Shown: positions 4,331 to 13,521, numbered from the stretch's first letter. The stretch is DNA of 13,521 nt from Candidatus Anstonellales archaeon (GCA_038740615.1 JAVYLQ010000015.1:1-13521), one strand, 5' to 3'. The notes: generated by a model not told the origin, from the sequence alone. Program-made: numbers and translations.

Positions 4331-5459
4331 GCTTTTGAACCTTGCACTGAAATACAACATAAATGATAGAACCAGATCCATACTAACTGTGATTACTGTT
4401 AGTATTGCAGCATTGCTAGTTATAATCATAATAATAATAACTCAGAGCGGTGTGAATTTCTTCTTTTCAGAACTGCTAACATTTCAACCAGATCAGTTGG
4501 TTATTCTACCCATAGCTATCCAGGGGGGAGGAGCTGCTTCTGGGATAAATTTCTTCGATATGAAAGATTATCTAGCTGTTAGGTCCTTAGAATGCATATC
4601 TAGGTTATATCCTACAATAATATCTAGAGCTGAATATAATTACAAGAATAGAACAGGCTTTGTATCTGTGGTAGGTTCTGATGAATACTTAACTGATAAT
4701 GAATTATATATATCTGTTATGGAGGGAAGACGAATAGATGAGAACAGTAAAAGAATGGTGGTAATAGGATATCGAGTATGGAAGACTCTTGATGTAAAGA
4801 TAGGTGATAGCATTACTCTTGATGGTAAGCAATTCAGAGTTATTGGCATTCTTGAAAAATCAACTTTCCAATCTACAGATGATCAAGTTTTCATATCTTT
4901 GAGTGATGCAAGAGAATTATTTGGAAATAGGTTCAATTCGCTAATTGGTAGATTTGATCTGAACTGTGATGAGAATGGGCTTATTGAGAATATTAAATCA
5001 ATACTTAGAAGAGGAGGGAGAGATATAACTGTGATAAGCTCTCAGTTTATCAAACAGACAATAGGAACTGTTCTAGATCTAATCTCATTTGCCAGTATTG
5101 TTTTATCATTCGTAGCTAGTATTATTGCTAGCTTTGGTATAACTAATACTATTCTAGCATCATTGATAAAGAGAAGGAAACAGATAGCTGTGATGAAAAC
5201 CATCGGAGCAAGTGATAGAGATATAATAATTCTGATAATCTTTCAGATCTCCATATTGGTGATAGCTGGAATTGTATTAGCTGTTATCATAGCTTCGTTA
5301 TTGACAATATACCTAAACAATTTCATTCCAGTATATTTTAAAATATCCGATGTCATTATAAATATGATAATATTGTATTTAGTATCTGTAACTGCCCCTA
5401 TTATTCTAGGATCCAGAGATATATTTAGGATTTCACCTGTGGAGGCACTTAGAGAATAA
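4323..5459 (+). CDS. ABC transporter permease, MacB/FtsX family (second paralogue)
   Basis: RTRSILT + TM1, KRRKQIAVMKTIGA motif, C-terminal ISPVEALRE; overlaps the previous stop by 8 nt. Confidence 0.9.
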   Translation: MNKLLNLALKYNINDRTRSILTVITVSIAALLVIIIIIITQSGVNFFFSELLTFQPDQLVILPIAIQGGGAASGINFFDMKDYLAVRSLECISRLYPTIISRAEYNYKNRTGFVSVVGSDEYLTDNELYISVMEGRRIDENSKRMVVIGYRVWKTLDVKIGDSITLDGKQFRVIGILEKSTFQSTDDQVFISLSDARELFGNRFNSLIGRFDLNCDENGLIENIKSILRRGGRDITVISSQFIKQTIGTVLDLISFASIVLSFVASIIASFGITNTILASLIKRRKQIAVMKTIGASDRDIIILIIFQISILVIAGIVLAVIIASLLTIYLNNFIPVYFKISDVIINMIILYLVSVTAPIILGSRDIFRISPVEALRE

Positions 5460-6324
5460 TAAATCTTGCCTGAATTAACAATTCATTTGGTTCTGATATT
5501 GCACGAAGAGATAGAGAATCAAAGGAGGCAAAATATGCATATAGAGTAGTCTGATCATGATACGAATGTGATCTCAATATGTATGTCGGATGATAATATG
5601 ATGTGTTCTTTGTATATATCAGATAGGTATATTCTAATACATCTAGATATATATGATCTAGTTTCTCTAATATATCATATAATTCTACTATTTTTCTGAT
5701 AGATATGTTATGATTAGTTCTGATGAGTTTTCTAATGACAGATTCATATATACTAAGCTGTGTAGAATTTGGATCTCTGTTTCTCCTATTCATCTCCTGG
5801 GCATGCCATGCATTATAGAAAGGATGTTGGAAAAGGAGTTTGTAATTGTTAGATAATAGAAATCTGATAAATTCTATTGCTATATCCACGAAAGATAAGT
5901 TCTCTCTTGAATACTTTTTAAGTGTGTTTATATTATCTTTGGATGAATACCTGTAACCTTGCACAGTATGTATTAGTAAGCTTTTCTCGGATGGTAAAAA
6001 GGATATGGGGATTCTAAGTAATTCAAAATATTTTGCTTTAACTTTCGCATAGAGTCTAACATCAAACATACCTTCCATGTGAGGTTTCCCTAGCAGATCA
6101 GCACCCATTCTGATATTATTTCCTATATCGACTCTATATTCTGATATAGAACTTATTATTTTATTAAATTCTTGAAAGTCTGTATCTAAATATTTCGCCC
6201 ATATCTTAATAAGGCAACTTGCGACATTAGTATTGGGTTGAATGTGTTTCTGGTAGATTAATGTATTGTATAGATCGATTGGAACTCTACGGATTTCTTT
6301 ATTGAAATCATAAACACTATTCAT
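5449..6324 (-). CDS. Hypothetical protein (about 291 aa)
   Basis: Long ORF converging on the permease (11-nt overlap). ATG 6324 preferred over TTG 6372, which would run through the tRNA promoter. No family recognised with confidence. Confidence 0.65.
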   Translation of the reverse strand: MNSVYDFNKEIRRVPIDLYNTLIYQKHIQPNTNVASCLIKIWAKYLDTDFQEFNKIISSISEYRVDIGNNIRMGADLLGKPHMEGMFDVRLYAKVKAKYFELLRIPISFLPSEKSLLIHTVQGYRYSSKDNINTLKKYSRENLSFVDIAIEFIRFLLSNNYKLLFQHPFYNAWHAQEMNRRNRDPNSTQLSIYESVIRKLIRTNHNISIRKIVELYDILEKLDHIYLDVLEYTYLIYTKNTSYYHPTYILRSHSYHDQTTLYAYFASFDSLSLRAISEPNELLIQARFIIL

Positions 6325-6347
6325 TAAATTATTCTGTTTGAATAGAT

Positions 6348-6355
6348 TTTTAAAA
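6348..6355. promoter_or_regulatory. Palindromic, probably bidirectional TATA box (tRNA-Val and divergent ORF)
   Basis: TTTTAAAA, 24 nt from the tRNA 5' end (6380) and 23 nt from ATG 6324 on the minus strand. Confidence 0.6.
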
Positions 6356-6379
6356 GTTATAGAGAAATACAAAGTAGGA

Positions 6380-6452
6380 GGGCCCGTAGTCGAGGGGTTA
6401 AGACGCCGCTCTCACACAGCGGAGATCCCAGGTTCGAATCCTGGCGGGCCCA
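6380..6452 (+). tRNA. tRNA-Val(CAC), intronless, CCA not encoded
   Basis: Acceptor GGGCCCG/CGGGCCC with discriminator A; anticodon stem CCGCT/AGCGG, loop CT-CAC-AC (anticodon 6413-6415); T arm CCAGG-TTCGAAT-CCTGG; followed by CTA. Confidence 0.97.
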
Positions 6453-6495
6453 CTAATCTTTTTAAAGATTTTTACTATATTTTATATCAATGTGA

Positions 6496-6513
6496 TCACT
6501 CCTGTTGGAGTGA
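6496..6513. repeat. Perfect 7-bp hairpin downstream of the tRNA
   Basis: TCACTCC-TGTT-GGAGTGA. Function unknown. Confidence 0.6.
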
Positions 6514-6672
6514 GATAGGGTAAAAGTTATCATATTTGTGAAGTTTGATTTCACTTTTCGCGAATTTTTAGTACTTTTCTCTCTAAAACCCCCAAAAATT
6601 TTGCATGATTGCCAGTTTGACAAAAAATGGGGGGTAGTTTGAATTAATTTTTAATTCGCAAAAACCCCACGG
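6514..6672 (+). promoter_or_regulatory. Putative CRISPR leader (5' boundary approximate)
   Basis: Non-coding, homopolymer-rich stretch abutting repeat 1, with inverted elements CCCCCA (6589-6594)/TGGGGG (6628-6633) and GAATTAA-TTT-TTAATTC (6641-6657). Confidence 0.55.
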
Positions 6673-6767
6673 GTCTGTAAGATACCTAAAGGAATGTGAA
6701 GAAAAGTGTGTATCTTAAAACCTATCTTAGGTTAGTAAGTCTGTAAGCTACCTAAAGGAATGTGAAG
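6673..6767 (+). CRISPR. Orphan CRISPR-like mini-array: two 29-nt repeats, one 37-nt spacer
   Basis: R1 6673-6701 GTCTGTAAGATACCTAAAGGAATGTGAAG; spacer 6702-6738 AAAAGTGTGTATCTTAAAACCTATCTTAGGTTAGTAA; R2 6739-6767 GTCTGTAAGCTACCTAAAGGAATGTGAAG (28/29 identical). 66-nt period, GT start and ATGTGAAG end resemble class 1 (Cas6-processed) repeats ending ATTGAAA(C/G). Only two repeats, so not certain. Confidence 0.72.
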
Positions 6768-6820
6768 GATGATGATAGAGGTGATCTCTGAATTATGATG
6801 AGAAACGGGCAGTCTGACTT
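6765..6820 (+). ncRNA. Dual-guide C/D box sRNA (2'-O-methylation guide)
   Basis: Box C ATGATGA 6769-6775; 12-nt guide TAGAGGTGATCT; box D' CTGA 6788-6791; box C' ATGATGA 6795-6801; 12-nt guide GAAACGGGCAGT; box D CTGA 6814-6817; terminal stem AAG/CTT. All four boxes match consensus with canonical archaeal spacing. Confidence 0.9.
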
Positions 6821-7160
6821 AAAGAAGCTTTAGATTACCAAATATAATGTTTAATTTATCTTCAAAATCTGGGCCTGCCCCTATACAAGTTACTGTACCA
6901 GGATCCAGCTCAGTATGGCCAGCATCAACTATCTTTACTACTCTAATTCCCATGGTTTTAGCTCTATTGTATATATCTTCAAGCTGCTCTAGATTGTCCA
7001 CTTTCAATACAATCTTTTTTGCACCTTTAATTCTCCACATGTCTCTAAGCTTCTGGTCGGAGATAAGATAGGCTTCTAAACTAGCATGTGCTACCTGGGC
7101 AGCTATTTTACCACATGACATATTTAAATCCTTCCTAACAACAATTACCTGCTTGAGCAT
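6819..7160 (-). CDS. pth2: Peptidyl-tRNA hydrolase 2
   Basis: KQVIVVRKDLNMSCGKIAAQVAHAS, KKIVLKV, VDAGHTELDPGTVTCIGAGP motifs; 113 aa. Confidence 0.97.
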   Translation of the reverse strand: MLKQVIVVRKDLNMSCGKIAAQVAHASLEAYLISDQKLRDMWRIKGAKKIVLKVDNLEQLEDIYNRAKTMGIRVVKIVDAGHTELDPGTVTCIGAGPDFEDKLNIIFGNLKLL

Positions 7161-7175
7161 AGTTCTGTTAGAATG

Positions 7176-7188
7176 TTTATATTTAAAT
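7176..7188. promoter_or_regulatory. Putative bidirectional TATA element
   Basis: TTTATATTTAAAT containing palindromic ATTTAAAT (7181-7188), 20 nt from pth2 ATG and 22 nt from ATG 7211. Confidence 0.5.
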
Positions 7189-7210
7189 CTTTTCAGATAA
7201 TGATTAATTC

Positions 7211-8188
7211 ATGAAGGAACTTTACATAATTATATTACTTCTGATCATACTATTAGTCGTATCATTTTATGTTATATCCCAGAAAGACACAGAAATTAGG
7301 ACCTTAGAGCAAAATATTAGCAATTTAGAACAGTTAAATGAATTTCTTCTATCAGAGAATGAAAGATTGGCCGGACAACTTACTAGGATATCTAACTTGT
7401 TAGGAGAGAAAAATGATATTATTAGTAGCATGAATCTAGAGATAGAAAAAATGAATAATACCATAGATACGCTGAATAGATCATTAAGAGAACAAATTGA
7501 TAAATATATAGAATTAGAGCTTAAGTATAATTCAACGAAAGCTACAATAGACAATCTTTCAATTCTTAATAATCTGGTATCAGAGATAGAGTATAGATTG
7601 AATTGGTTAGATCTTAATTATTTGGGAATTTCTGATAGGTATTTAAATCTAAAACAGGAAATCGTTGAGTATTGCTATAATTCTGGTATATTAGATATCC
7701 CATGCTCATATATCATTATGGGCAATTATATGAATGAAACACAGATGAACATTACTGATATACATACTGCTTTAAGAATAGGTAAAGGAGATTGTGTAGT
7801 TTATAGTATAATGTTTGATAGATTACTGAAAGAAATTCGACCCATGAAGATACGAACACTCATGAAGTCTGAAGGCAGTAATTATTCTATTACAATAAAA
7901 AATGTTCAATATAACATCAAAAACTACGGCCCAATAGATATTAATTACAATCAATCTAGAGTTGTTTGTTATGGTATTGGAGATAGAGGGCACTGTAGCC
8001 TGGCTTTAGATGAGGACATAATAGATTACTCTATGGGATTGTACCTCGGCAAAATAGGTAAGAATTTTGATATTTGCCAAAGGGATTTGTGTAAATGGAA
8101 AACTGGTTGGATTACTCTACAGATTCTAAATAATGACATCATATATTTAAACTATTCACTCAGAAACATTCTATTATCAATTAGGTGA
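7211..8188 (+). CDS. Membrane-anchored coiled-coil protein with putative transglutaminase-like C-terminal domain
   Basis: N-terminal TM (YIIILLLIILLVVSFYVI), heptad-rich stalk of about 110 aa, GKGDCVVYSIMF and RGHCSLAL...IID motifs consistent with a Cys-His-Asp triad. Confidence 0.65.
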   Translation: MKELYIIILLLIILLVVSFYVISQKDTEIRTLEQNISNLEQLNEFLLSENERLAGQLTRISNLLGEKNDIISSMNLEIEKMNNTIDTLNRSLREQIDKYIELELKYNSTKATIDNLSILNNLVSEIEYRLNWLDLNYLGISDRYLNLKQEIVEYCYNSGILDIPCSYIIMGNYMNETQMNITDIHTALRIGKGDCVVYSIMFDRLLKEIRPMKIRTLMKSEGSNYSITIKNVQYNIKNYGPIDINYNQSRVVCYGIGDRGHCSLALDEDIIDYSMGLYLGKIGKNFDICQRDLCKWKTGWITLQILNNDIIYLNYSLRNILLSIR

Positions 8189-8198
8189 TGTCTATCAT

Positions 8199-9881
8199 AT
8201 GGTTAAAATATCTCTGAATTCTCGAATACCTAAGAAAAGAATAGCAGTAGTGGATAGAGATCTGTGTACTAGAGAAGAGTGTGGGTATCAGTGTATTCGT
8301 GTATGTCCGGTAAATAAATCCAAGAAAGATTGCATAACTATTGATGAGCAGGGATATCCTGTGATTAGTGAAGAGCTATGTATAGGGTGTGGAATATGCG
8401 TAGTGAAATGCCCTTTTGATGCTATAAGAATTGTAAATCTGGATTTTGATTTCAGTAGAACAGTACATTCTTATGGTGTGAATAGCTTTAGAATATACTC
8501 TTTACCTCTACCTAAATCGAATAGTATTGTTGGATTTCTGGGAAAAAATGGAATTGGTAAAACCACCATCATAAACATCTTGGCTAAAAAGATGATTCCA
8601 AATTTTGATCAGAATATATCTGATTGGAATACGGCTTATACTAAGATGACAGCTGAAGAGAAAACGTTCTTTCAGAAGGATAGGAGAGTATCTGTAAAAC
8701 CTCAGAATATAGAGCAATTTAGAACATCGAATGTATCTGTAGGTCAGCTGCTAAATACGCTAGGACTTTCCCTATCTGAATGGACCCATCTAATGGATCG
8801 CAAACTGAGTGAACTGAGTGGAGGAGAATTGCAAAAGTTACTTATAGATATAGCCATATCTCAAAATGCAGAACTATTTTACATAGATGAACCTACCAAT
8901 TTTCTTGACGTATATGAGAGATTGAGATATGCTCTTAAAATACGTGAAAAACTAGAGGGTAAAGATGTTATAGTAGTTGATCATGATCTTGCATTTCTTG
9001 ATTATATTGCTGATTATGTGTATTTGTTTGTAGGTGAGGAAGATGTTTTTGGATTTAGTTCAGAGATAAGAGCTGTTAGAAACGGTATTAACGAATATAT
9101 GGATGGATTTCTAAAATCTGAGAATTATAGATTTAGAGAACAGATAAGATTCGATGATTATTCAGAATCCGATAGACCCCAACATAAGCTAGTAGATTAT
9201 GAGAGTATGGATATATCTGTAATGAATTTCAGATTACATGTGGAGGGAGGGGACATTAAGATTGGTGAAGTAATAGGGATAGTTGGTAGAAATGGTATAG
9301 GTAAAACCAGTTTTGTTCGAGAGTTGGTTAATAGATATAATAATATTAAATTAGCATACAAGCCGCAGTATATTCAACCTTCAGATATTTATGTTAAAGA
9401 ACTCAATCTCAACCAGAATCTAATTGATATGTTTGGTATAAGAAGATCGATTATGGAGAGAAAATTGAAGGAATTGAGCGGAGGCCAGTTGCAGAAGGTC
9501 TATACCGCCCATGTTCTATCGCAGCAGGCAGATCTGTATCTATTAGATGAACCTACCGCTTATTTAGATATAGAGAATAGGATAAGGTTGAGTAAAATAA
9601 TTAGAAAATACGCCACGGAAATGGGAAAAAGTGTAATAATAGTTGATCATGATATATTATTCTTAGATAGAGTGGCGCATAGAATAATTGTATTTGATGG
9701 TCAACCAGGTATTAGTGGAATTGGTAGTTCACCTATGGATAAGAGAGAGGGAATGAATAGATTTTTAAGTATTCTAAACATCAGCATGCGTAGAGATCCA
9801 GATAGTAATAGGCCTAGAATAAACAAACCTAACAGCGTTCTTGATAGGGAGCAGAAATCTACTGGAAGATTCTATTTTTAA
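8199..9881 (+). CDS. abcE1: Ribosome recycling ATPase ABCE1 (Rli1)
   Basis: Fe-S motifs CTREECGYQCIRVCP and CIGCGICVVKCP; two NBDs (GKNGIGKT/LSGGELQ/IDEP and GRNGIGKT/LSGGQLQ/LDEP); C-terminal RRDPDSNRPRINKPNSVLDREQK; SD-like AGGTGA upstream. Confidence 0.97.
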   Translation: MVKISLNSRIPKKRIAVVDRDLCTREECGYQCIRVCPVNKSKKDCITIDEQGYPVISEELCIGCGICVVKCPFDAIRIVNLDFDFSRTVHSYGVNSFRIYSLPLPKSNSIVGFLGKNGIGKTTIINILAKKMIPNFDQNISDWNTAYTKMTAEEKTFFQKDRRVSVKPQNIEQFRTSNVSVGQLLNTLGLSLSEWTHLMDRKLSELSGGELQKLLIDIAISQNAELFYIDEPTNFLDVYERLRYALKIREKLEGKDVIVVDHDLAFLDYIADYVYLFVGEEDVFGFSSEIRAVRNGINEYMDGFLKSENYRFREQIRFDDYSESDRPQHKLVDYESMDISVMNFRLHVEGGDIKIGEVIGIVGRNGIGKTSFVRELVNRYNNIKLAYKPQYIQPSDIYVKELNLNQNLIDMFGIRRSIMERKLKELSGGQLQKVYTAHVLSQQADLYLLDEPTAYLDIENRIRLSKIIRKYATEMGKSVIIVDHDILFLDRVAHRIIVFDGQPGISGIGSSPMDKREGMNRFLSILNISMRRDPDSNRPRINKPNSVLDREQKSTGRFYF

Positions 9882-10659
9882 CATTATATACTACAGCAGT
9901 AAAATATCCTGGTCTTATCTTGTTATTCATTATCGATCTAGGATTCTGATATATTCTCGTACCTATCCACTGATATAATTCTGTAGCTGTTTTAATAGGT
10001 ATTCTATAAGGAGTGGGGATCTCTGAAAAATATCTCTTCCCACTCTCTATCCAACCCCAAGCTAATTCTATCTCAAATCTTATTAGCCGTTCCAATTTAG
10101 AATCCATACACAAATCACTAACTCCAAACATCTCTCTATGTTCTTTAGGTAAATATATTCTGTTAATATTCCTATCCTCATATATATCTCTAACAAAGTT
10201 TATCATTTGCATTCCCCTACCTAAGAGCCTAGCTCCTGGTAATACAGAATCATCCAATCTCAAGATTCTTGAAATACACATTCCTACAATCTCAGCAGAA
10301 CCATACATGTAATCTAGTAACTCTCTATATGTGTATTCAGATTTATATATATCATACTCCATAGATCTAAAGAATGCTTCTATCCATTCATGCTCAATCC
10401 CAGTTTCCCTCATCAACACGTTGAATTTGTTAAATACTCTATTTTCTATATCCCCAATATGGTGTTCTATTCCATTCAATATAAACTCTTTGGCTTTATA
10501 GAGTTCCTCTATTCTTCTAGGGTATTGATCAACAAAATTATCAACGATTCTAAGAAAACTATATAGTATTGAAATCTTATCACGAATATATTTAGGGAAG
10601 AACATAATAGATACTCCATATGATCTACTGGATTTAAGTGTTATATAATTCTCAATCAT
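9859..10659 (-). CDS. crtB: Phytoene/squalene synthase family protein
   Basis: YSFLRIVDNFVD (DxxxD), YMYGSAEIVG, LGRGMQMINFVRDIYED, RIYLP motifs; TTTAAA (10682-10687) 22 nt upstream. Product specificity cannot be determined. Confidence 0.88.
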   Translation of the reverse strand: MIENYITLKSSRSYGVSIMFFPKYIRDKISILYSFLRIVDNFVDQYPRRIEELYKAKEFILNGIEHHIGDIENRVFNKFNVLMRETGIEHEWIEAFFRSMEYDIYKSEYTYRELLDYMYGSAEIVGMCISRILRLDDSVLPGARLLGRGMQMINFVRDIYEDRNINRIYLPKEHREMFGVSDLCMDSKLERLIRFEIELAWGWIESGKRYFSEIPTPYRIPIKTATELYQWIGTRIYQNPRSIMNNKIRPGYFTAVVYNVKNRIFQ

Positions 10660-10688
10660 TGTTTATAATACTCACTTTAGCTTTAAAT

Positions 10689-11714
10689 CTATTTGTTCAG
10701 CTTAAGTTTTTCGAATAGTTCTGCATATGTTCTATGATTTCCGTACGTGAACTCATTAATAATTCTCTCAATATTAACCACCTCTATCCCTGACAGTAGT
10801 AATGCTATCAGAAACTCCACCCAACTATCATTCTCTTTAGATACCGTCTTGAACTTGATCTTCAGATTGAACAGAGTATCGTTTCCTTCTAAATATGAAC
10901 GAATCAGAGGGTGGAGTGAGTGTCTGAATCCAGCCTCATACAACCTTGATATCATGTCATCATCAGTCATTTCATCCCGGTGGATCAGCTGTTGAAGACG
11001 ATTGGTATAGAGTTGGTATTTATTATAAGGGATTTTAAGAAAAGCTGGTTTTCTGAACATGATCTTGATTAGGTAATCTGGAGTATCTAGAATCCTGCTA
11101 TATATATCATTAAACTCCAGATTTTCGTTTATAATATAATTTGCAATCTTGTATCTGATTGATTCACTCAAATTACTCTTTATCTTATCTAGAGTCACAA
11201 TCTTTACCGCATCTTTAAATACACGAATGTTATTCAGTAATGATCGGATCGAAGGTATTGCGTGTTTGTCATATGTGATCGATGTAAGGTTTGAGGATTC
11301 TGATGTATCATAGGCTCTAAATAGATCTGTGTAACTCTCTAGAAGATTCATCAATTCCTCATCGTTTTGATTAACTAACTCTAGAATAGCTCTAGATCCT
11401 TCAAAACTCTCGAACGTATGGTATGCATATAGAATTCTGGGATCGATCCTATATTTGATTAGATATTTTATTACATTCTGAAATATCTGTTTGAAATCTT
11501 CTTGACTAATTTTCCTTTTTTCTACTATATAATTATGAATCCTCATTAAATTATTGAAAATATTACTAGCAGCTTCATTAGGAGTTATTTCAAAAATTTC
11601 TCTATTTCTCAGATAATTTTCTATTGCTCTATCGTAGTAATCTTCTATTTTATAATCCCTCAATAATTTTCTTGCAGTGTTTATATCTATTTTAATCTGG
11701 GATGTTTTCTCCAT
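10689..11714 (-). CDS. Hypothetical soluble, probably alpha-helical protein (341 aa)
   Basis: Long ATG-initiated ORF filling the gap between crtB and tmk; no motif recognised. Confidence 0.7.
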   Translation of the reverse strand: MEKTSQIKIDINTARKLLRDYKIEDYYDRAIENYLRNREIFEITPNEAASNIFNNLMRIHNYIVEKRKISQEDFKQIFQNVIKYLIKYRIDPRILYAYHTFESFEGSRAILELVNQNDEELMNLLESYTDLFRAYDTSESSNLTSITYDKHAIPSIRSLLNNIRVFKDAVKIVTLDKIKSNLSESIRYKIANYIINENLEFNDIYSRILDTPDYLIKIMFRKPAFLKIPYNKYQLYTNRLQQLIHRDEMTDDDMISRLYEAGFRHSLHPLIRSYLEGNDTLFNLKIKFKTVSKENDSWVEFLIALLLSGIEVVNIERIINEFTYGNHRTYAELFEKLKLNK

Positions 11715-11735
11715 TAAAAAAATTTACTAGTTTAA

Positions 11736-11743
11736 TTTTAAAA
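11736..11743. promoter_or_regulatory. Palindromic, probably bidirectional TATA box
   Basis: TTTTAAAA, 21 nt from ATG 11714 (minus) and 23 nt from ATG 11767 (plus). Confidence 0.55.
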
Positions 11744-11766
11744 ACAATTGTTTTAGATAGGTGCTT

Positions 11767-12318
11767 ATGAGAATTGCATTGGAAGGTATAGATGGGGCAG
11801 GAAAAACCACAATTGCGAGGATTCTAGCAGATAGATTGAACATCAAATATCTCAAGTTCCCCAGATATGATTTCATACCTATTATCAAAAAACATATATC
11901 TGGGGAAATAAGATTAGATGACAGAACTACAACCCTACTATTTTTAGCTGATATAATAGATGGGATAAATAATGAGAATAATTATATAGCTGATAGGCTT
12001 TTCTTCTCTACAATTGCTTACTCTAAGTTGAATTTGGATATGTTGGTAGAGCTAATACTAGAGTTATCAATACCATTTCCAGAGTATACGATATACTTAG
12101 ATATTGATCTGGATACGGCTCTTAAAAGGGTATCTAGGAAATATGAGATCACCGAATATGATAGAGATATAGATTTGTTGAATTCTGTGAAAAAAAGATA
12201 TGAAATAGTATTCTCACATAAAGAGATTTTAGATAGGACTGAAGTAATACGAATTGATGCTAGATTGAGTATTGAGGAGATCCTTGAATTGATTCAGAGC
12301 AGAATTAGTAAAAGTTAG
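11767..12318 (+). CDS. tmk: Thymidylate (dTMP) kinase
   Basis: IALEGIDGAGKTT P-loop, KFP, IADRLFFSTIAY, IYLDID, IDA motifs. ATG 11767 preferred to GTG 11761 from promoter spacing. Confidence 0.92.
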   Translation: MRIALEGIDGAGKTTIARILADRLNIKYLKFPRYDFIPIIKKHISGEIRLDDRTTTLLFLADIIDGINNENNYIADRLFFSTIAYSKLNLDMLVELILELSIPFPEYTIYLDIDLDTALKRVSRKYEITEYDRDIDLLNSVKKRYEIVFSHKEILDRTEVIRIDARLSIEEILELIQSRISKS

Positions 12319-12529
12319 ATGTATCTATGTTCTGCTGCAATAGAGCTCCTTCTAATAATCCATATGCATAGTCTATAGCAGCTATAGCATCATAGTATCT
12401 ACGCCTTGAGATGAAATATATTGCATCACTATAATAATCTTTAGCTCTGTTTAGAATTTTCTGATCGACCTTATTAGAACTGTAATCTATGAGCAATCTT
12501 AATTTTTCAAGAGCTCTCCTAGTTCTCAT
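12305..12529 (-). CDS. DUF357 family protein
   Basis: AKDYYSDAIYF...DAIAAIDYAYGLLEG pattern of this small archaeal family; ATGA overlap with the metG stop. Confidence 0.85.
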   Translation of the reverse strand: MRTRRALEKLRLLIDYSSNKVDQKILNRAKDYYSDAIYFISRRRYYDAIAAIDYAYGLLEGALLQQNIDTSNFY

Positions 12530-13521
12530 TGTCCAATACTAGCTCTGAGTTGATCTACTTCTGTGTCTAATTTTCTAAATGGAATTATACTTGAGTTGTA
12601 AACAACTCTATTAGGATAGTTTAAATCAGACTCAACTGAGTAATGTTCAAGTATCCTCTTAGTTGTGAATGGGATGAAAGGTTGTAATAATTTAGTTACA
12701 AACATACTACCATATACTGTTTTAGATATTACTGCCCTAGCATTTTCATAATCCATCTTCCAAGGTTCTTTTTCGGTGAGCATTCTATTGTAATAAGCTA
12801 CTAATTCCATAGCAGTTTCCATTCCTTCTTTTAGATCTACCCTATCCATATAATAGACGTATTTGTCATATATTGCTTTTTCATAATCATCCATCACAGG
12901 TGGATCTAATTCCCTACCAGACCACAATTTATTAACTCTGGTGATTAAATTGCCATAATTTGCAATCAATTCGTTATTTATTTTGCTTTTCAATTCTTCT
13001 AGAGAGAAATCAGAGTCCACTAATCCTGCAGGAGAAATGGAAATCATATAATATCTTATGTAGTCTGGATGGATGTATTTTAGAGTTGTTTCTAATGACA
13101 GGAACCAACCTCTACTCTTAGAGAATTTTTTCCCCTCAAGAGTTAAATAACCTCTTACTGGTATCCTATATGGTAGATTCATATTTGCCCCATAGAGCAT
13201 TGCTGGCCAGAATAGATAATGATGATATATTATATCTTTACCTATAAAGTGATATATCTTAGATCTGTTCCATAATTCTCTCCAATCTTTCCTCAGAGCT
13301 CTTAATGATCCTATATATCCTATAGGTGCATCGAACCATACATAGAATACCTTCCCTGGCATATCTGGTACTGGAATTCCCCAATCTAGATCTCTCACTA
13401 TATCCCAATCTTGCAAATCCTCTAACCATCCTCTAAGATAATTGTATATTTCTGGATGAGCTGTTTTTCTATTATAATTATCTAAAAATTCTCTAAAATA
13501 GCTAAGTTTGAAAAACAGATG
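12526..13521 (-). CDS. metG: Methionine--tRNA ligase, C-terminal part (5'-truncated by window edge)
   Basis: Frame open to 13521 (HLFFKLSYF...). RDLDWGIPVP, YVWFDAPIGY, FIGKDIIYHH, KFSKS (KMSKS-type), NNELIANYGN, EPW anticodon-binding motif. Confidence 0.97.
   Translation of the reverse strand, partial: HLFFKLSYFREFLDNYNRKTAHPEIYNYLRGWLEDLQDWDIVRDLDWGIPVPDMPGKVFYVWFDAPIGYIGSLRALRKDWRELWNRSKIYHFIGKDIIYHHYLFWPAMLYGANMNLPYRIPVRGYLTLEGKKFSKSRGWFLSLETTLKYIHPDYIRYYMISISPAGLVDSDFSLEELKSKINNELIANYGNLITRVNKLWSGRELDPPVMDDYEKAIYDKYVYYMDRVDLKEGMETAMELVAYYNRMLTEKEPWKMDYENARAVISKTVYGSMFVTKLLQPFIPFTTKRILEHYSVESDLNYPNRVVYNSSIIPFRKLDTEVDQLRASIGQ

Follow-up and report, generated by a model that had tools for sequence, protein, structure and literature searches.

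A C/D box guide RNA joined to the terminal repeat of a type I-B CRISPR array in a micrarchaeal genome, and its possible release by Cas6

The window considered here, meaning the whole stretch of 13,521 nucleotides that was analysed, is the entire contig C15 of a Candidatus Micrarchaeota MAG (G000; 541,905 bp in 31 contigs, GC about 0.34, completeness 83%), and the public runs containing it derive from hot-spring metagenomes. The genomes that carry the fusion are reduced, with sizes of about 0.6 Mb. Comparisons were made with a sister species of the same genus (G001), with the congeners G002, G004, and G005, and with one metagenome locus (L035).

Between positions 6380 and 7160, a tRNA-Val(CAC) gene is followed by a CRISPR leader, two repeats enclosing one spacer, and a C/D box sRNA, which a convergent pth2 gene meets from the opposite strand (Table 1). 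An earlier note on this DNA had described the order of leader, first repeat (R1), 37-nt spacer, second repeat (R2), one nucleotide, and full C/D box sRNA, and this was confirmed, coordinates included. The two repeats (repeat family D5; 97% identity, spacing 66) differ solely at repeat position 10 (A/C). An array length of two repeats is what the short-read MAG assembly gives. The note had also placed the sRNA in the position of a second spacer, which is not borne out: a third repeat is absent 3' of the sRNA, which is instead the trailer after the terminal repeat. The pth2 stop codon and the CUU at 6818–6820 overlap by 2 nt, and pth2 is syntenic in G001 and G004. Farther along the window (8199–9881, plus strand), a 560-aa ORF contains an internal duplication (8957–9002 and 9623–9668; 666-nt spacing, 74% over 46 nt), a pattern expected for a twin-domain ATPase.

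Table 1. Features of the window from tRNA-Val(CAC) to pth2, with predicted Cas6 cuts and a candidate promoter element.
Feature	Position	Strand	Basis or remark
tRNA-Val(CAC)	6380..6453	+	ARAGORN; Rfam tRNA 69.1 bits
CRISPR leader	6454..6672	+	blastn copies and alignment with G001 and G004 leaders; 219 nt, AT-rich
Leader hairpin TCACTCC-TGTT-GGAGTGA	6496..6513	+	read from sequence
Candidate TATA-like box of leader promoter	6564..6574	+	predicted; aligns with TTTAATATA in G004
Repeat R1, leader-proximal	6673..6701	+	29 nt; A at repeat position 10
Predicted Cas6 cut in R1	between 6693 and 6694		8-nt handle rule
Spacer	6702..6738	+	37 nt
Terminal repeat R2	6739..6767	+	29 nt
Predicted Cas6 cut in R2	between 6759 and 6760		8-nt rule; handle AUGUGAAG (6760–6767)
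Single nucleotide G, R2 to box C	6768		
C/D box sRNA core	6769..6817	+	read directly, Rfam, strict pattern scan
Box C AUGAUGA	6769–6775	+	
D' guide	6776–6787	+	12 nt
Box D' CUGA	6788–6791	+	
Box C' UGAUGA	6796–6801	+	
D guide	6802–6813	+	12 nt
Box D CUGA	6814–6817	+	
CUU, 3' strand of terminal stem	6818..6820	+	
pth2, peptidyl-tRNA hydrolase PTH2, convergent	6819..7160	-	Pfam PF01981 125.6 bits

Behind the repeats stands a genuine CRISPR system of class 1, the class that the earlier note had supposed, and of type I-B, with a long array and an operon in G001 and a cas6b gene in G000. Copies of the repeat in the G000 assembly are confined to the window (2 forward, 0 reverse, control 0), and the same repeat builds a long array in G001:C7 with spacers of 35–40 nt, one of two assembled arrays of this repeat in that genome (C7 and C21). 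Adjoining one of them is a complete operon of cas6b, a 580-aa gene, cas7b, cas5b, cas3, cas4, cas1, and cas2. The note had proposed searching the genome for cas6 and for other arrays with this repeat: cas6b is present in G000 (G000:C27:630-1448; TIGR01877, 61.7 bits; 92% identical to its G001 counterpart), and further arrays were found in G001, although none elsewhere in the G000 assembly. On the 3' side of the G000 cas6b lie the first 211 aa of the next operon gene, followed by the contig end. Neither Cas1 nor DevR (Cas7) had a match in the G000 assembly (83% complete), an absence that fits, short of proof, a contig break within the operon. The gene after cas6 (G000:C27:1-633, minus strand; G001:C7, L040 4112-5854), which matched no family, is presumably the large subunit; between G000 and G001 its first ~58 aa are near-identical and identity is 64% over 130 aligned aa, which, set against the 92% of cas6, looks like a sharp recombination or divergence boundary.

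The DNA that had been called leader-like is indeed a leader, with conservation at three loci each in G000 and G001 and partly in G004. In G000, blastn copies follow tRNA-Val(GAC) at the end of C21 (G000:C21:8638-8809; 95.9% over 172 nt) and tRNA-Val(UAC) at the start of C13 (G000:C13:1-102; 99% over 102 nt), and both contigs break inside the leader. G001 has the same three tRNA-Val-leader modules, on C9, C25, and C10. Two of the G001 leaders align with that of the window, as does, for the last ~110 nt of the window leader, the leader of a G004 array (G004:C1, L028 1-420), which sits after tRNA-Leu(UAG). Judged by these copies, the array to which the sRNA is joined is one of three sharing a leader in G000. 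Every leader seen in the genus (4 of 4) lies directly 3' of a tRNA gene, namely tRNA-Val CAC, GAC, and UAC, and tRNA-Leu(UAG) in G004, and this could reflect leaders transcribed together with the tRNA, leaders spread by recombination among the tRNA-Val paralogues, or an insertion process directed to the 3' ends of tRNAs. The hairpin core ACTCC-TGTT-GGAGT of the G000 and G001 leaders is kept in the otherwise diverged G004 leader (L028 minus strand, about 265–285).

The orientation of the arrays is fixed by the leader, by the repeat 3' end ...AUGUGAAG, and by degenerate repeats at the far ends; terminal repeats are changed at their 3' ends in G001:C27, G001:C21, and L035. For the repeat, folding predicts no structure (-0.4 kcal/mol). 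The spacers preceding the terminal repeat in G000, G001, and L035 are all different, and because spacers differ between strains we read the arrays as active. Within viral contigs, 0 loci matched the window spacer as an exact protospacer and 0 loci matched the repeat. Relative to unique flanks, depth in public contigs was about 3x for the leader and about 70x for the repeat, so further repeats exist in the population, and more arrays exist, unassembled. Several details of the other arrays were also recorded. Two neighbouring spacers of the G001:C7 array (L025, minus strand, offsets about 414–516) are identical, which amounts to a duplicated repeat-spacer unit. The G001:C7 and G001:C21 arrays have a common trailer starting GGTTGTTT..., unlike the sRNA-bearing array, and one of the two abuts cas2 convergently. 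On G004:C58 a convergent tRNA-Gly is separated from a terminal repeat by 6 nt.

The RNA behind R2 has boxes C (RUGAUGA), D' (CUGA), C' (UGAUGA), and D (CUGA) in order, and was one of six matches in a strict C/D pattern scan of G000. Over 6765–6820, Rfam returned sR2 (31.7 bits, E 8e-4, gathering score 42) and snoPyro_CD (30.0 bits, E 6e-3, gathering score 45), and a further model, sR12, scored 24.5 bits (gathering score 38); since these models are lineage-specific, scores below gathering are no argument against the C/D class. The D' guide forms 10 contiguous Watson-Crick base pairs with 16S positions 1479–1488 of 1490 (contig C11), inside the 3'-terminal GAUCACCUC, with 16S 1483 as the predicted target nucleotide. 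A weaker pairing of 8 bp joins the D guide to 16S 1125–1132; its best match to sense-strand 23S was 6 contiguous bp, and a near-match on contig C6 was rejected as a 23S target because the 23S rRNA gene is on the other strand. Genes for the RNP proteins are present in G000 (fibrillarin, 245 bits; Nop (Nop5), 105 bits; L7Ae, 87.7 bits). Its sequence suggests that the fused RNA is a functional 16S methylation guide. When 6760–6822, 6739–6825, R1, and the junction of G001 were folded, z-scores ranged from +0.67 to +1.5 and did not surpass shuffled sequences, which is uninformative since such values are expected for kink-turn RNAs and unstructured repeats.

A pattern of box C, D' guide, and D' core matched 63 loci in species-representative genomes, 14 of them in bacterial records, which were set aside as chance or coding matches. 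The 49 archaeal loci are mostly from Micrarchaeota, with others in Bathyarchaeia, Desulfurococcales, Njordarchaeota, and Thermoplasmata, and on this distribution the sRNA is old. A D' guide directed at the extreme 3' end of 16S (GAUCACCUC) is common to sRNAs of MAGs from all five of these groups, and the family loci (L044–L106) differ greatly in their second guide and in internal-loop length (49 to more than 150 nt).

The terminal stem of this sRNA involves the CRISPR repeat. As had been noted, the last three nucleotides of R2 (AAG, 6765–6767) can pair with the CUU that follows box D, leaving G-A-U as a 3-nt bulge; in an alternative 3-bp register, AGG (6766–6768) pairs with the same CUU through one G-U pair. 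Conservation of the repeat-sRNA junction in related genomes had been named as a check, and the junction was indeed found in G001:C27 and in L035, each with another spacer, in the order spacer, repeat, 2 nt, and box C. L035 has the repeat-spacer-repeat-sRNA arrangement of the G001 type; it is what remains of five metagenome loci matching the junction pattern, the other four, coding-like sequence without repeat and without sRNA, having been discarded as matching by chance. The end of G001:C27 reads spacer, GTCTGTAAGCTACCTAGAGGAATGTGAG, AT, GUGAUGA...CUGA, and UCU, and this contig is syntenic with window positions 6739–12905 (93.9% over the 6.2-kb flank), while G001:C9, which ends in tRNA-Val(CAC) and the leader start, is syntenic with 5394–6520.

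Between G000 and G001 the sRNA core is identical (48/48 nt), compared with the 93.9% of the flanking 6.2 kb. Positions 1–27 of the terminal repeat are kept in G001, with one additional change in L035, and in both the last positions of the 8-nt tag depart from the consensus repeat. The terminal stem changes from AAG/CUU in G000 to AGA/UCU in G001 with both altered pairs compensated, which is evidence from one species-to-species comparison of a stem of only 3 bp. The changes on its 3' side are free of coding constraint, one replacing the TAA stop codon of pth2 by TAG and the other falling outside the ORF. Across the 15 compact members of the family (49–52 nt; of 45, picked by length and not by pairing), the stem covariation score was 0.633 against a shuffled mean of 0.204, with 0 of 500 shuffles reaching it, and slid-register controls scored 0.16–0.31. 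A stem of at least 3 bp occurs in 19 of 45 loci (shuffled mean 3.7, maximum 10, over 2000 shuffles), a count that leaves out 5 of the 49 archaeal loci (in 4 no box D could be recognised, and in 1 the flank was too short). The covariation and the excess of stems of at least 3 bp argue that the terminal stem is a selected feature of the sRNA; it is essentially absent from the G004 sRNA (1 bp) and so dispensable in at least one relative. By these comparisons, the 5' strand of the stem in G000 and G001 is the end of the CRISPR repeat, and the junction is kept and co-adapted.

The arrangement in G004 points to how the fusion arose. There (L006/L055), the orthologous sRNA lies 1 nt after tRNA-Val(CAC), with pth2 downstream as in the window, whereas in the window 315 nt of leader and array separate the tRNA end (6453) from box C (6769). 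In G002 and G005 the sRNA sits behind another C/D sRNA. Since the G004 sRNA is directly behind tRNA-Val(CAC), most likely a leader-array module was inserted into a tRNA-sRNA dicistron, exactly between the tRNA-Val(CAC) 3' end and the nucleotide before box C; the simplest history would date this insertion to the ancestor of G000 and G001. The earlier note had offered chance adjacency of an array remnant and an existing sRNA as its alternative, of which the adjacency stands, being most likely the outcome of this insertion, but not the remnant. On such a history the sRNA would formerly have been freed by RNase Z, and one endonuclease route to its 5' end would have been replaced by another.

A promoter belonging to the fused sRNA itself is not apparent. 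No TATA-like hexamer was found at -48 to -19 of the sRNA in G000, G001, or G004; among 50 orthologous loci, a loose motif was present 19–48 nt before box C in 33 and a strict one in 17, counts of an archaeal TATA motif that are crude in AT-rich DNA. By eye, a TTTAAA-type box precedes 4 of the 5 other strict-pattern C/D sRNAs of G000. As the spacers before the terminal repeat differ between strains, no conserved promoter lies there, and together with the lack of a promoter-like box before the sRNA in G000, G001, and L035 this indicates that transcription would have to come through the array. Twenty public runs were listed, among them one of RNA (X15), which yielded two contigs: one lies on pth2 (6998–7149), and the second was dropped as a transcript of the window, being a tRNA of another organism with 4 differences. 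Neither covers the leader, array, or sRNA.

With no promoter visible before the fused sRNA, co-transcription followed by a Cas6 cut at 6759/6760, the route suggested in the earlier note and in part supported by these results, is the best reading, and we consider it rather likely that the sRNA is transcribed together with the pre-crRNA and that Cas6 makes its 5' end. Transcription would run from the leader, or by read-through from tRNA-Val, across R1, the spacer, and R2 into the sRNA. The TATA-like box in the leader would set a start about 70–75 nt before R1; in M. kandleri arrays, transcription starts at a point 71–73 nt upstream of their first repeat (PMC3695527; this and the papers cited below are drawn on for the part of their text that was available). 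Cas6b would then cut 8 nt before the 3' end of each repeat, in keeping with the 8-nt 5' tag of crRNAs (PMC3695527; PMC3491384), and the cut in R2 would free the last crRNA and give the sRNA a 5' end of AUGUGAAG-G-box C. The cut may be shifted by ±1 nt, as its position is assumed from other systems and the repeat is predicted to be unstructured. Finally, L7Ae, Nop5, and fibrillarin would assemble on the kink-turn, whose canonical stem would be formed by AAG from the repeat and CUU, after which trimming may shorten the 5' overhang and the 3' end as far as the RNP.

Another possibility, which we hold to be real if clearly less probable, is that the sRNA is co-transcribed with the array but matures independently of Cas6, its ends being set by L7Ae, Nop5, fibrillarin, and exonuclease trimming, with the Cas6 cut incidental or blocked by the RNP. 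Most archaeal C/D sRNA genes have no promoter of their own and mature from longer precursors (available text of PMC7994747), and the context of this sRNA is highly variable, comprising its own TATA-like box, tandem sRNAs, a tRNA fusion, and the CRISPR fusion. Maturation of C/D sRNAs has moreover been described as independent of flanking sequence (Tripp et al., as reviewed in PMC7994747), so Cas6 may be incidental, that is, sufficient but unnecessary. However, a Cas6 that cuts every repeat, as the last crRNA requires, necessarily cuts 9 nt before box C. The degenerate terminal repeats of M. kandleri are still processed (PMC3695527), and the preservation of positions 1–27 of the terminal repeat in G001, with the one further change in L035, likewise speaks against a Cas6-independent route; the two routes are also not mutually exclusive.

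It is improbable, in our assessment, that the sRNA is a primary transcript of its own cryptic promoter in the terminal repeat or spacer, with the array a mere neighbour. Weak, AT-rich promoters do occur in archaea, CTTAAAAC is present in the G000 spacer, the motif scan is crude, and 17 of the 50 orthologous loci are without the motif; nonetheless, the spacer is wholly different in G001 and L035 while the sRNA is kept, a TATA-like hexamer is absent from the repeat, and for a 5' end near box C a TATA box would be required where the repeat begins, which is GC-mixed. Least credible of all is an assembly artefact that misjoined leader, repeats, and sRNA, or a dead two-repeat relic next to an sRNA unrelated to it: both leader and repeat are multi-copy, every repeat breaks the k=31 unitigs, and two other G000 contigs break within the leader, but the window flanks have syntenic counterparts in G001, on contigs whose ends are the leader and the spacer-repeat-sRNA junction, tRNA-Val(CAC) and the sRNA-pth2 pair adjoin directly in G004, contigs of three DNA runs begin at or just inside R2 and enter the sRNA (0 differences in records 8 and 17, 2 in record 23), the independent metagenome contig L035 has repeat, spacer, repeat, and sRNA in succession, and the arrays, whose spacers differ between strains, are probably active.

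In known arrays, to our knowledge, the fragment downstream of the last cut is a trailer RNA without an assigned function, whereas the downstream fragment in the window would, by its sequence, be a conserved rRNA-modification guide. The array otherwise resembles those of M. kandleri (PMC3695527) and N. equitans in its 29-nt repeat ending ...GAAG, its type I-B genes, and its conserved leader, and processing of the terminal repeat in those species is likewise expected to leave a downstream fragment starting with the 8-nt tag. A promoterless C/D sRNA directly behind another RNA gene has its parallel in the tRNA-Val/sRNA8 dicistron of N. equitans (Randau 2012, PMC3491384), where RNase Z makes the sRNA 5' end; plant tRNA-snoRNA dicistrons are further cases cited in the same paper. 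The G004 layout with tRNA-Val(CAC) is exactly of this type, whereas in the window the sRNA is partnered by the terminal repeat of a CRISPR array, Cas6 is presumed to be the nuclease, and tRNA-Val lies 315 nt upstream. N. equitans itself was absent among the core-pattern matches in species-representative genomes.

As in other co-transcribed archaeal C/D sRNAs (PMC7994747; Lui et al. 2018, PMC6009581), the sRNA lies inside a longer transcript on our reading, its context varies between relatives, and box motifs and kink-turn define the mature RNA. The contexts listed in the available text of those two papers are ORF overlaps, tRNA dicistrons, tRNA introns, sRNA polycistrons, and intergenic genes, with no CRISPR context among them; unlike the sRNAs listed there, that of the window has a kink-turn stem partly supplied by the repeat of its host transcript. 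Placing a Cas6/Csy4 site before a functional RNA to release it is an established engineering design (bioRxiv 10.1101/004432; PMC9095627, as far as their available text goes), and unlike those designed circuits in heterologous cells the window would be a natural, evolutionarily retained case. The earlier note knew of no described case, and our search agrees, having found no paper on a C/D sRNA at a CRISPR repeat in the full-text literature outside subscription papers, as far as the text seen extends.

Archaeal C/D sRNAs borrow promoters and processing from neighbours, be they mRNAs, tRNAs, or other sRNAs. If a CRISPR array does act as the host transcript and Cas6 does release the guide, a new route would be added to their expression, and the engineered design would have its first counterpart in nature. 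In a single genus this sRNA occurs in three settings, namely with a promoter of its own, after a tRNA, and after a CRISPR repeat, a natural series on what its maturation needs, which also bears on whether CRISPR RNA processing enters the housekeeping RNA metabolism of reduced genomes. We regard as unlikely the stronger reading in which Cas6 is the obligatory 5'-maturation nuclease of the guide, whose supply would then depend on leader transcription and Cas6 cleavage. On that reading, the sRNA would have lost its promoter and its RNase Z route when the leader-array module was inserted, and the last nucleotides of the repeat would have been recruited into the kink-turn stem. If true, it would imply purifying selection for an intact cas6 and for continued transcription of the array, a natural "addiction" link by which a requirement for Cas6 would tie adaptive immunity to ribosome biogenesis in a reduced genome.
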